Shown here: positions 3,403 through 4,659 of the stretch, piece by piece | Position numbering within the stretch: the first letter of the stretch is position 1 | Layout of the letters: each line of letters begins with the position of its first letter | Assembly (NCBI GenBank): GCA_003694875.1 | Contig: RFJN01000074.1 | Coordinates: 1-10,349, forward strand | Origin: Planctomycetota bacterium | GTDB taxonomy: Bacteria > Planctomycetota > J058 > J103 | Direction: 5' to 3' | Length of the DNA stretch: 10,349 nt | The notes under the pieces: model-generated | Seen by the model: only the letters and a program-made list of their open reading frames with translations | What the model was told of the DNA's origin: nothing | Databases searched by the model: none | Translations under genes and position numbers: made by a program

Positions 3403-4659
3403 GTGGTCGATCTCAGTGCCAGCTTGCGCAAGGCTCTTCTCGACACGCTCGAGCGCGCGCGCACCCGCTACTACGCCGGCGAGGACAGCAAGGCGGCGGC
3501 CGACTACGAGCACGCCTCGCGGCTCGCGCTGCAGCTCGCCGAGAGCGCGCCGGACCGGCGCACCGAGATCAAGTACAAGCGCGACGCGCTGCGGTTTCGC
3601 GATGTGGCGCGCCGGATCGCGCGCGGCGACGTGCCGCCGGTGGGCGAGCGCGGCCGGCCGCGCGAGGAGCGCGGCGGCGCGAAGCCGGCCGGTGCGGCCG
3701 GGATCGAGAAGCAGGCCGGGGCGCGCGAGGAGGACGACGGGCTGTCGGCGGCCGTCTCCTCGCTCGTCACCGTCTCGAACGTGACGTGGAACGAGATCGG
3801 GGGGCTCGAGGAGACCAAGCGCGAGATCAAGTACGCGCTCGCGCTCTCGATGGCGGCCGCGCCCGAGGGGCTGCGCGTCACCCGCTTCCGCAACATGATG
3901 TTCTACGGGCCGCCCGGCACCGGAAAGACGCTGCTCGCCGCCGCGACGTCGAATGCGCTGCGCCGCAGCGCGCAGGAGCAGGCGCGCGCGGTGTTCTACA
4001 ACGTCAAGGTGAGTTCGCTGCTGTCGAAGTACTTCGGCGAGTCGCCGCGGCTCGTGAGCGAGCTGTACGGCCAGGCGCGCGACGCCTCGCCCGCGGTGGT
4101 GTTCCTCGACGAGTTCGACGCGCTCGCGGGCTCGCGCGACCGCGACGACACCGGCGCCGAACGCCGGATCCTCAGCACGATCCTCGCCGAGCTCGACGGG
4201 CTGTCGGAGAAGGGGCGCGAGGACGTCTACGTGCTCACGATCGCGGCGACCAACCGCCCCTGGGACCTCGACGAGGCGGTGCTGAGCCGCTTCGACAAGA
4301 AGATCCTCATCCCGCTGCCCGATCCCGACACGCGCGCGGCGATCCTGCGCATCCACATCCTCGATCGCGGCTTCGAGACGCGTGTGCCGATGGAGCAGCT
4401 CGTGGCGCTGACCGAGGGCTACAGCGGGCGCGAGATCGAGCGGTTCGCCAAGGAGGTGCAGAACCGCATGATCCAGGAGATGAACCCCGGGCTGATCGAG
4501 CGGCTCGACCGCGGTCTCGAGGCGGTGCGCGACTATCGCATCGCGGTGCGCGAGCTCGAGTGGCGCGACTTCGAGCAGGCGGCGGCGCGCATCACCCCGC
4601 AGACGTCGCCGCAGGAGATGGAACAGTTCGTGCGCTGGCAGGCATCCATGTCGGTGTAG
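3403..4659 (+). CDS. Vps4/CdvC-like AAA+ ATPase, 418 aa, with an N-terminal MIT-like three-helix domain. It belongs to the meiotic-clade AAA group (Vps4/spastin/katanin).
   Basis: GTG at 3403 with GGGAGG (3392..3397) 5 nt upstream; stop TAG at 4657..4659. N-terminus: [68 protein letters not shown], a MIT-like three-helix bundle with the 'Y..A..Y..A...L' pattern. A Pro/Gly/Ala-rich linker follows. AAA cassette: '[20 protein letters not shown]' (compare Vps4 'VKWEDVAGLEGAKEALKEAV'), Walker A '[13 protein letters not shown]', pore loop 'SKYFGES', Walker B '[10 protein letters not shown]', '[29 protein letters not shown]' (compare Vps4 '[26 protein letters not shown]'). The C-terminal helix '[29 protein letters not shown]' resembles the Vps4_C helix ('[29 protein letters not shown]'). 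Confidence 0.85.
   Translation: [418 protein letters not shown]

Follow-up and report, generated by a model that had tools for sequence, protein, structure and literature searches.

A bacterial Vps4-like ATPase encoded beside a Snf7-family gene carries serine at the first arginine-finger position and arginine at the sensor-2 position

A stretch of 10,349 nucleotides from a Planctomycetota genome (contig RFJN01000074.1 of assembly GCA_003694875.1; here called the window) encodes an AAA ATPase that resembles Vps4 and reads LSRF in the second region of homology where Vps4 has RRRF, next to genes that a first, sequence-only reading took for Snf7-like proteins. A Vps4-like ATPase has been said to appear absent in bacteria (PMC7619361). 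The locus raises two questions: whether an ATPase with a single arginine before the phenylalanine of this motif is a damaged or a working enzyme, and whether it serves as the motor of a bacterial ESCRT-III-type polymer.

The 418-aa product of the ATPase gene is a 100% match to a deposited Planctomycetota MAG protein, and in it a MIT domain is joined by a linker to a single AAA cassette of the classical type, followed by a C-terminal helix (Table 1). The MIT-like character of the N terminus, proposed from the sequence alone, was borne out by three lines of evidence: the AF2 model has helices at residues 5-24, 28-47, and 52-74 with pLDDT above 90 over most of the span, a profile of this region searched against the PDB gave VPS4A/B MIT domains as its top five matches (E values of 1.4e-3 to 0.04) with end-to-end alignment, and Pfam MIT is matched by 7 of 33 family members. 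The linker has no secondary structure in the model, falls below pLDDT 50 at residues 89 to 106, and varies in length among homologues. Walker A, Walker B, sensor 1 (N284, read from the translation), and an aromatic pore loop are all present and conserved, as the sequence-only reading had stated for the Walker motifs and pore loop. The C-terminal helix shares its F..W motif with the C terminus of Asgard Vps4, while the insert at the site of the Vps4 beta domain is short, with about 25 residues (361-386) that AF2 models as two short helices and one strand residue.

Table 1. Features of the window, in order of position
Feature	Position	Strand	Basis
MerR-type HTH protein with conserved ~270-aa C-terminal domain, head of cluster	313..1929	+	Pfam MerR_1 9.7e-8
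Helical protein, 251 aa, family unassigned, conserved cluster partner	1963..2718	+	
Helical protein, 212 aa, possibly ESCRT-III-like	2728..3366	+	
MIT-AAA ATPase gene (Vps4-like, S-R-F clade), 418 aa, GTG start	3403..4659	+	ORF translation; Pfam AAA 6.7e-35; AF2 pLDDT 80
MIT-like three-helix bundle, residues 5-74	3415..3624	+	AF2 helices, N-terminal profile, Pfam MIT
Gly/Ala/Pro/Arg-rich disordered linker, residues 75-107	3625..3723	+	AF2, homologue comparison
Walker A GPPGTGKT, residues 169-176	3907..3930	+	Translation; invariant in 57-sequence family alignment
Pore loop 1, K209-Y-F-G212	4027..4038	+	K209, F211, G212 invariant; Y210 at least 90% conserved
Walker B D236-E237 (VVFLDEFD)	4108..4113	+	Translation; invariant in family alignment
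L294-S295-R296-F297, second region of homology	4282..4293	+	Translation of nt 4270-4305
S341-G342-R343-E344, R343 at sensor-2 position, lid helix start	4423..4434	+	Translation; alignment to GAD
C-terminal helix, residues 403-417; Y409 and W412 conserved	4609..4653	+	AF2; family conservation
Snf7-family (ESCRT-III) protein, 198 aa, N-terminal MGLFKSK motif	4684..5280	+	Pfam Snf7, family profile
C-terminal amphipathic helix D180-K195 (DRKIEAGLGEIERELK), MIM1-like, putative MIT docking site	5221..5268	+	Translation
Ser/Thr protein kinase, conserved cluster member	5412..6713	+	Pfam Pkinase 2e-33

Both the translation and an alignment of 219 sequences confirm the LSRF motif, with one arginine before the phenylalanine. 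From anchor NRPWDLDEA to anchor F[DE]K the alignment to an Asgard Vps4 (L015) is gapless, which places Ser295 at the first of the two Vps4 arginine-finger positions and leaves no adjacent arginine that could shift into it; Arg296 is kept and is the equivalent of R289 in yeast Vps4. No second arginine aligns from a neighboring position within the second region of homology, and in HMMER alignments to p97 and VAT the first arginine of RxxR faces a gap. In the 57-sequence family alignment S295, R296, and F297 do not vary, and the orthologues are uniformly SRF rather than RRF, with [VI][LM]SRF in 120 of the 120 best homologues (51 to 100% identity). Among 219 single-domain relatives aligned with hmmalign, 202 read S-R-F and only 7 have arginine at the position of Ser295. 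This conservation goes well beyond chance, and the serine-for-arginine change is the hallmark of a large clade and not peculiar to one gene. K270, considered as an alternative clade-specific trans finger, was ruled out, as it is also present in Vps4 and so does not distinguish the clade.

Loss of the first finger could mean a truly weakened enzyme, either an ATPase with slow turnover or poor cooperativity or a holder or regulator that depends on nucleotide, in which R343 would be structural only. Both fingers are needed in the Vps4 proteins studied, where double-finger mutants of the mouse, S. solfataricus, and M. sedula enzymes lose assembly or activity (PMC5520056), and the guanidinium charge is not one that serine can replace. 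However, the arginine that is kept is the key finger, the one whose single mutation in yeast Vps4 (R289) leaves 7% activity (PMC5520056), and the catalytic residues other than position 295 are invariant over hundreds of clusters. R343 moreover tracks position 295 without exception, reversions included, as set out below, and we regard a weakened enzyme as quite unlikely. A pseudo-enzyme was ruled out by the invariance of all other catalytic residues.

R343 lies in the motif GYSGRE, which aligns to the GAD motif of p97 D1 and D2 and of VAT, where classical AAA proteins have alanine; in the AF2 model helix 342-360 begins at the R343 region. The sensor-2 position of AAA proteins is described as alanine (PMC5039278), and alanine or serine is found there in Vps4, p97, and FtsH, the Vps4 sequences compared reading GSD at the lid motif. 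Arginine fills the sensor-2 column in 93% of clade members, and in the comparison no Vps4 or CDC48-like sequence has it there. Across the 219 sequences the residues at position 295 and sensor 2 pair as (S,R) in 202, (N/Q/D/H/E,R) in 7, (R,S or A) in 7, (G,A) in 2 of the long RxGR type, and (S,gap) in 1, with no (R,R) or (S,A) pair, so that arginine at 295 and arginine at 343 exclude each other without exception; these raw counts are inflated by the kinship of the sequences and reflect only about three to four independent switches. Four members within the clade carry RRF, and all of them have alanine or serine at sensor 2. They share 40 to 47% identity with S-R-F members versus 29 to 38% with one another and are monophyletic in 0 of 60 bootstraps, and at least three RRF-carrying lineages inside the clade have alanine or serine replacing the sensor-2 arginine. 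The opposite pairing, LRPGRF with YSGAD, occurs in a second MIT-AAA paralogue encoded in sibling operons.

That R343 follows the state of position 295, reversions included, is the pattern expected of compensation and not of decay, and with its lost interface arginine matched by a conserved sensor-2 arginine the protein looks like a working variant and not a crippled enzyme. The mutual exclusivity of a second finger and a sensor-2 arginine is a published rule (PMC2734466), and the ATPase fits the type with one finger plus sensor 2, a single arginine (R296) ending the finger helix and another (R343) standing where the first lid helix begins. From its alignment position and the covariation we infer a sensor-2 role for R343, and the active site likely combines one trans finger with one cis sensor-2 arginine, as in non-classical AAA+ proteins. 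Because the change is coupled to R343, which canonical Vps4 lacks, the altered inter-subunit coupling suggested earlier is more aptly seen as the exchange of a trans for a cis arginine, with compensation, than as a missing finger. HslU, RuvB, and DnaA have the same pairing of catalytic arginines under the exclusivity rule (PMC2734466); they belong to other AAA+ clades, whereas the core here is that of the classical clade, and the arrangement therefore looks secondarily re-acquired.

The serine could also matter in its own right, as a regulatory phospho-site that would let the cluster's Ser/Thr kinases turn the motor off, or on, at the subunit interface. It occupies an interface position that faces the ATP of the neighboring subunit, one or two Ser/Thr kinases are present in nearly every cluster, and an FHA protein is encoded beside the Aeropyrum homologue. 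Against this, 7 of the 219 sequences have N, Q, D, H, or E at the position and still keep the sensor-2 arginine, so the common requirement appears to be "not arginine" and not "phosphorylatable," and we consider regulation by phosphorylation of Ser295 highly improbable.

The clade that carries the swap is large and well separated, spans many bacterial phyla and a few Thermoproteota, and is recognized by two motifs, x-S-R-F within the second region of homology and S-G-R-[DE] in the lid. In a neighbor-joining tree it is monophyletic in 91 of 100 replicates and sister to Vps4 in 51 of 100, the latter with just two canonical Vps4 sequences sampled. The clade shares NxPW (W287), K270, and a short second region of homology with Vps4, and the CDC48-like domains compared lack these features. 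Top Foldseek matches include FIGL-1, katanin, Vps4, and spastin. Chains of FIGL-1, katanin, spastin, and M. sedula Vps4 reach target-normalized TM scores of 0.81 to 0.84, and those of yeast Vps4 about 0.7. Although phmmer lists against the PDB are dominated by p97 and VAT, this is because their two domains add up, and only the per-domain scores are informative; by these, spastin is the best single-domain match at 156.5 bits versus 142 to 145 bits for p97 or VAT D2. Among NCBIfam models the protein scores 178 bits for CDC48, 171 for PAN, and 156.1 for CdvC, the last without reaching the CdvC cutoff of 650, and an Asgard Vps4 used as a control (362.8 bits) likewise falls under that cutoff.

Compared with Vps4 and CdvC, the ATPase shares the N-terminal MIT domain, the flexible linker, the one classical AAA cassette, the C-terminal helix, NxPW, a second region of homology that is short and lacks the two-residue insert, a finger equivalent to yeast R289, and an adjoining Snf7-family gene whose product has a MIM1-resembling tail. 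It differs in having serine for the first finger and arginine for the alanine or serine at sensor 2, in forming a separate clade with bacterial hosts, and in its ~25-residue insert at the beta-domain site. Spastin, katanin, and fidgetin also have a MIT-type N terminus and a C-terminal helix, and this group supplies the best matches in sequence (spastin) and in fold (FIGL-1 and katanin). These enzymes nevertheless keep two adjacent arginine fingers (LRRF, which the sequence-only reading gave as the spastin motif, occurs in a few members of the clade), and they sever microtubules or act on Rad51, substrates that are absent here.

The adjoining Snf7-family gene starts 24 nt downstream of the ATPase gene. 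PF03357 (Snf7) is matched by 26 of 35 members of the 198-aa family with a best E value of 6.5e-8, whereas the protein of the window itself scores 16.5 bits, under the Pfam Snf7 gathering threshold of 27.3. The family profile is collinear with CHMP3 (E of 1.2e-3) and CHMP2A (0.018), the match to CHMP1B not being significant (E of 2.5), and PspA_IM30 is absent from the Pfam matches of the family. Among homologues the MIM1-like tail is conserved as D.xI..GL..I..EL, and in a homologue from L128 its sequence, EDKVSSRLDSLR, fits the MIM1 consensus exactly. This resemblance of motifs suggests that the MIT domain of the ATPase may bind the tail of the 198-aa protein. The physical link to adjacent Snf7-like proteins that had been read from the MIT domain is plausible for this neighbor, a Snf7-family protein with a MIM1-like tail, but only one of the three neighbors is demonstrably Snf7-like. 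The 212-aa protein is at most suggestive of an ESCRT-III-like fold, hhalign giving a probability of 4% for its match to the 198-aa family and a search of its family profile against the PDB giving only noise. The 251-aa protein has no Pfam match and hhalign probabilities below 1% against the 198-aa and 212-aa families; its gene is conserved upstream in Planctomycetota, Acidobacteriota, and L130.

The pairing of the two genes extends well beyond this genome. In loci from Planctomycetota, Chloroflexota, Schekmanbacteria, and a Chitinophaga-labelled (Bacteroidota) source, the ATPase gene has a Snf7-family homologue no more than about 3 kb away, mostly immediately downstream; in an Acidobacteriota locus the homologue sits about 3.2 kb upstream of the ATPase gene. 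The association is kept in at least five bacterial phyla. Kinases are also found in sibling loci and beside an archaeal NRF-type ATPase. A profile scan of metagenome contigs with the family alignment, which relied on generic patterns, returned mostly CDC48-like loci and was uninformative on context.

These neighbors bear on whether the protein is an ESCRT-III motor at all or instead a general substrate unfoldase of a signaling, proteolysis, or defense module unrelated to ESCRT-III, that is, an IetA-like or CDC48/PAN-like AAA protein working with kinases, and in some lineages subtilases, with the helical neighbors as adaptors or substrates. The NCBIfam scores are highest for CDC48 and PAN and not for CdvC, there are two kinases per cluster, the L130 and L010 clusters contain S8 peptidases, and PADLOC IetA models match the AAA core (E of 4.7e-32) while the kinase matches defense-associated kinase models. 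The IetA/IteA matches are, however, confined to the AAA core and reach 105.6 bits against a cutoff of 510, and a protease is absent from most sibling loci and from the window, which has no IetS protease partner. The MIT domain, C-terminal helix, NxPW, and short second region of homology are traits of Vps4 and the meiotic clade, the best conserved neighbor is a Snf7-family protein with a MIM1-like tail, and Ser/Thr kinases also occur in archaeal ESCRT loci (PMC10936438). We find an unfoldase unrelated to ESCRT-III unlikely. A defense identity as IetA was set aside, the matches being limited to the AAA core and no protease being present in the window.

We favor the reading that the gene product is probably a Vps4-like disassembly motor of a bacterial ESCRT-III-type membrane-remodeling module. 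We propose that its MIT domain would dock on the MIM1-like C-terminal helix of the 198-aa protein, and perhaps also on tail segments of the 212-aa and 251-aa partners, and that the ATPase hexamer would thread ESCRT-III-type subunits through its KYFG pore loops and so dismantle the polymer. Hydrolysis would involve Walker B E237, sensor-1 N284, trans finger R296, and cis sensor-2 R343, with R343 supplying the charge of the lost first finger. The geometry would be "one finger plus sensor 2," as in HslU, RuvB, and DnaA, instead of the "RxxR plus GAD" seen in FtsH, p97, and Vps4. Kinases encoded in the cluster probably regulate assembly. The fuller proposal, to which we give slightly less than an even chance, is that of a genuine bacterial ESCRT-III/Vps4 machine in which a Vps4-related clade, possibly the sister of Vps4, whose members occur across many bacterial phyla and in some Thermoproteota, has Snf7-family polymers and Ser/Thr kinases as its partners, and in which the motor has reverted to an ancestral AAA+ geometry that uses one trans finger and a cis sensor-2 arginine.

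Among known bacterial systems, PspA/Vipp1 with PspF is alike in that an ESCRT-III-superfamily polymer is genetically linked to an AAA+ protein. PspF is a sigma-54 activator without a MIT domain, and the polymer partner here matches Pfam Snf7 and has no PspA_IM30 match. PspF acts as a transcription factor and is not a Vps4 homologue (PMC7619361). Closer to the present case, passages of the supplement of Ravi et al. 2024 (PMC11237479) list a bacterial "VPS4-like AAA+ ATPase," for example Opitutus ACB74714.1, which probably belongs to the same clade as the present ATPase, because an Opitutales member (L010, LSRM) falls inside it. As described in those passages, a TPR plus 6TM protein takes the place of snf7, whereas here and in many sibling loci the Snf7-family gene is directly beside the ATPase gene; the text and supplement passages concerned make no mention of the finger and sensor-2 configuration.

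A conserved bacterial operon that combines a MIT-AAA ATPase and a Snf7-family protein with a MIM1-like tail would revise the picture of absence. If the proposal is true, the Vps4/ESCRT-III partnership is not confined to archaea and eukaryotes, which would bear on when this partnership of motor and polymer originated or on its transfer between domains. For AAA enzymology, the clade would offer a natural and repeatedly reversed swap of a trans-finger and a cis-sensor-2 arginine in one fold. Nature would thereby have put the "RxxR or sensor 2" rule of AAA ATPases to the test repeatedly, with switches each way, and the clade would give a direct way to study how nucleotide sensing between subunits and within them can stand in for one another.

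Recent reviews describe bacteria as lacking pairs of Vps4 and ESCRT-III, and a literature search on bacterial Vps4 gave no match, yet the present gene cluster recurs in several bacterial phyla. The MerR-type protein at its head has a C-terminal domain that recurs as well, in sibling loci and in an Acidianus protein of 571 aa.

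The 418-aa ATPase ORF is 100% identical to a deposited protein, and its translation contains a Walker A motif (GPPGTGKT), a Walker B motif (VVFLDEFD), sensor 1 (N284), pore loop 1 (KYFG) and, within the 12 residues translated from nt 4270-4305, the motif LSRF (nt 4282-4293). Vps4 enzymes carry paired arginine fingers (mouse R290/R291, S. solfataricus R262/R263, M. sedula R259/R260), and yeast R289, directly before the Phe, has been called "the highly conserved arginine finger", its mutant keeping 7% activity (PMC5520056). Because the ATPase aligns to an Asgard Vps4 from our genome scan (L015) with no gaps between strong flanking anchors, Ser295 stands where Vps4 has its first finger and Arg296 corresponds to the second, which confirms the single Arg in LSRF noted in the sequence-only reading. 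The Arg retained is the more critical of the two fingers.

When clade-conserved columns were compared with Vps4 and CDC48-like sequences, Ser295 and Arg343 emerged as the two clade-specific positions of the catalytic region. The latter lies within GYSGRE (nt 4417-4434), at the start of lid helix 342-360 in the AF2 model, and shares its column with the 'GAD' Ala in p97 D1, p97 D2 and VAT, which is the sensor-2 position and is Ala in AAA proteins (PMC5039278). An AAA+ rule quoted by Karlberg et al. combines either one Arg with GARx (HslU, RuvB, DnaA) or RxxR with xGAD/E (FtsH, p97) (PMC2734466). When positions 295 and 343 were scored by hmmalign in 219 single-domain relatives, 202 had the pair (S,R), 7 had (N/Q/D/H/E,R), 7 had (R,S or A), 2 were (G,A) of the long RxGR type and 1 was truncated there, with no (R,R) or (S,A/S) pair among the 219. 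Four RRF proteins nested in the clade (P0357, P0444, P0457, P0470) carry Ala or Ser at sensor 2 without exception (4/4); they are 40-47% identical to S-R-F members of the clade (Ser at the first finger position, Arg at sensor 2), 29-38% to each other and 27-34% to Vps4, and were monophyletic in 0/60 bootstraps. Since they are nearer to S-R-F members and never group together, at least three independent co-switches of positions 295 and 343 are suggested. Judging from position and covariation, the simplest reading would be compensation, in which the clade swapped a trans-acting for a cis-acting Arg. The altered inter-subunit coupling proposed earlier is upheld in part and calls for a more precise statement: the alignments indicate that the ATPase is not a Vps4 deprived of a finger but a member of a widespread Vps4-like clade with one predicted trans finger and a sensor-2 Arg.

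The motif [VI][LM]SRF is present in 120/120 of the best-matching homologues, which are 51-100% identical and come mostly from Planctomycetota MAGs. A profile search covered 1.84 billion cluster representatives; among its best 150 matches are 75 proteins of ≤480 aa, most of them ~385-420 aa with a full-length match, and these carry SRF in 61 cases and RRF in 4. Such conservation indicates that S-R-F is a hallmark of the clade and not an accident. Genome matches extend the motif to Chloroflexota, Acidobacteriota, Opitutales, a Chitinophaga-labelled MAG and Schekmanbacteria, and archaeal paralogues carry it as VSRF (Aeropyrum), ISRF (Acidilobaceae), LSRF (an uncultured archaeon) and INRF (Acidianus). 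We rejected the Acidianus protein as a CdvC, since its score against chain 4lcb, the A. hospitalis CdvC, is just 188.7 bits; the Aeropyrum and Acidianus S/N-R-F ATPases are CdvC paralogues, not CdvC itself. With CDC48-like domains as the root, neighbour-joining recovered the S-R-F clade at 91/100 with archaeal members basal; the two canonical Vps4 sequences sampled came out as its sister with support of just 51/100. Giant proteins of 1000-2100 aa with three to seven tandem AAA cassettes were also observed (P0327, P0328, P0330, P0340 and others); the cassettes examined in these four read SR[FL] (one DRF) with Arg at the sensor-2 position, so the one-finger/sensor-2 active-site type has been multiplied within single polypeptides.

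The proposed MIT-like N-terminus is upheld. The AF2 model (overall pLDDT 80) begins with three helices, pLDDT exceeding 90 over most of them. A disordered linker leads on to the AAA core; residues 361-386 then form a short insert and 403-417 a C-terminal helix. When a profile built from residues 1-80 was run against the PDB, the five best matches were VPS4B and VPS4A MIT domains, aligned in register across residues 7-75 (E 1.4e-3 to 0.04), and Pfam MIT matches 7/33 clade members. The best Foldseek matches include FIGL-1, katanin, M. sedula Vps4 and spastin chains (target-normalised TM-scores 0.81-0.84) and yeast Vps4 (~0.7), with p97 D2 interleaved among these entries in the ranking. NxPW, K270 and a short second region of homology are common to the ATPase clade and Vps4 but absent from the CDC48-like domains compared. 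We lean, with some reserve, towards an ATPase that works like Vps4, but it departs from the Vps4 family in two defining active-site features, and its NCBIfam CdvC score, 156 bits against a curated cutoff of 650, is below its CDC48 and PAN scores.

The 198-aa neighbour belongs to a family in which 26/35 sampled members match Pfam Snf7 (best E 6.5e-8) and whose profile is collinear with CHMP3 (1.2e-3) and CHMP2A (0.018); CHMP1B is matched only weakly (E 2.5). The protein starts with MGLFKSK, which resembles the CHMP3 N-terminus, and its C-terminus is a conserved amphipathic helix, D.xI..GL..I..EL, whose counterparts in divergent homologues are EDKVSSRLDSLR (L128), DSRVEEGLRRIR (L016) and DEEIQKGLSEIR (L129). 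These three tails match the MIM1 consensus, (D/E)xxLxxRLxxL(K/R), reported by Obita and by Stuchell-Brereton in 2007. Type 1 binding uses the MIT H2/H3 groove (PMC9477494).

The window, a complete contig (10349 bp, 72% G+C, from a Planctomycetota MAG), carries its real genes close together on the plus strand. A 1309-aa antisense ORF spanning the operon (859-4788, minus strand) was dismissed as a chance product of the 72% G+C, as were other long off-frame ORFs, the usual high-G+C by-product; none has homologue support.

Genes of the window and the second AAA paralogue of sibling loci
Feature	Locus	Coordinates	Strand	Remark
MerR-HTH protein (ORF1)	window	313-1929	+	start probably near nt 529, since homologues align only from residue 73
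251-aa protein	window	1963-2718	+	
212-aa protein	window	2728-3366	+	
AAA ATPase	window	3403-4659	+	
198-aa protein	window	4684-5280	+	
Ser/Thr kinase	window	5412-6713	+	
666-aa protein	window	6766-8766	+	no Pfam match
301-aa protein	window	8721-9626	+	no Pfam match; start probably near nt 8760, since homologues align from residue 14
Second Ser/Thr kinase	window	9454-10349	+	truncated at 3' end of contig
Second MIT-like AAA	L001	13751-14902		
Second MIT-like AAA	L127	12895-14094		
Second MIT-like AAA	L128	9989-11206		

The full order (MerR-X or X alone, 251-like, 212-like, MIT-AAA, 198-like, Ser/Thr kinase, second AAA, 666-like, 301-like, kinase-RDD) recurs in several Planctomycetota genomes, and parts of it in Acidobacteriota, Chloroflexota, Schekmanbacteria and other lineages. 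Of the 14 distinct bacterial loci with enough flank, 13 have a 198-like gene, mostly directly downstream of the ATPase and ~3.2 kb upstream in the Acidobacteriota locus. Gene content and homology place the ATPase gene in what is, by prediction, a conserved bacterial ESCRT-III-type operon. A 2025 review describes Vps4-like ATPases as apparently absent from bacteria (PMC7619361); Ravi et al. 2024 report that several bacterial phyla acquired a VPS4-like ATPase by transfer, Planctomycetes being named in the supplement, and displacement of snf7 by a TPR-6TM protein in those bacteria (PMC11237479). In the literature searched, of which coverage is incomplete, we found neither a bacterial operon uniting MIT-AAA with Snf7 nor the finger/sensor-2 swap described.

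In sibling clusters, the gene for another MIT-like AAA ATPase (~370-405 aa) separates the kinase from the 666-aa gene; this paralogue has the opposite, classical pairing of LRPGRF with YSGAD; it is missing from the window, as just 52 nt (6714-6765) lie at its place. The window's second kinase, 39% identical to the first, corresponds to the kinase-RDD gene closing the cluster in sibling loci. In ORF1, a MerR-type HTH (residues 108-168) is joined to a C-terminal domain of ~270 aa. Sibling loci also have this domain as a gene of its own, and it recurs in Acidianus, where the NRF-type ATPase is flanked by a coiled-coil protein of 571 aa that contains it (L017 2842-4557, minus strand, E 7e-6). The 251-aa protein ends (2450-2718) in a Pro/Glu/Ala-rich linker that differs between lineages and a short conserved motif, R..LELE (VE or LE in homologues); we pose only as a question whether this tail might bind MIT domains. 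An S8 subtilase lies inside the cluster of two distant clade members, an unassigned metagenome contig (L130 1795-4485) and an Opitutales MAG (L010 2063-4270), recalling ATPase and protease pairs such as IetAS; the window has no protease.

In the archaeal loci (L012 5646-6473 and L017 7244-8800), the Aeropyrum S-R-F ATPase is followed by an FHA-domain protein and the Acidianus N-R-F ATPase by a TPR Ser/Thr kinase; both are preceded by helical proteins (180-204 aa) for which no family was detected. Archaeal ESCRT loci also feature kinases, FHA and SPFH/Zn-ribbon proteins (Makarova et al., PMC10936438), and their SPFH components are echoed by a faint Band_7 match in the L128 homologue of the 666-aa protein and by a Zn-ribbon plus Band_7 protein in L130.
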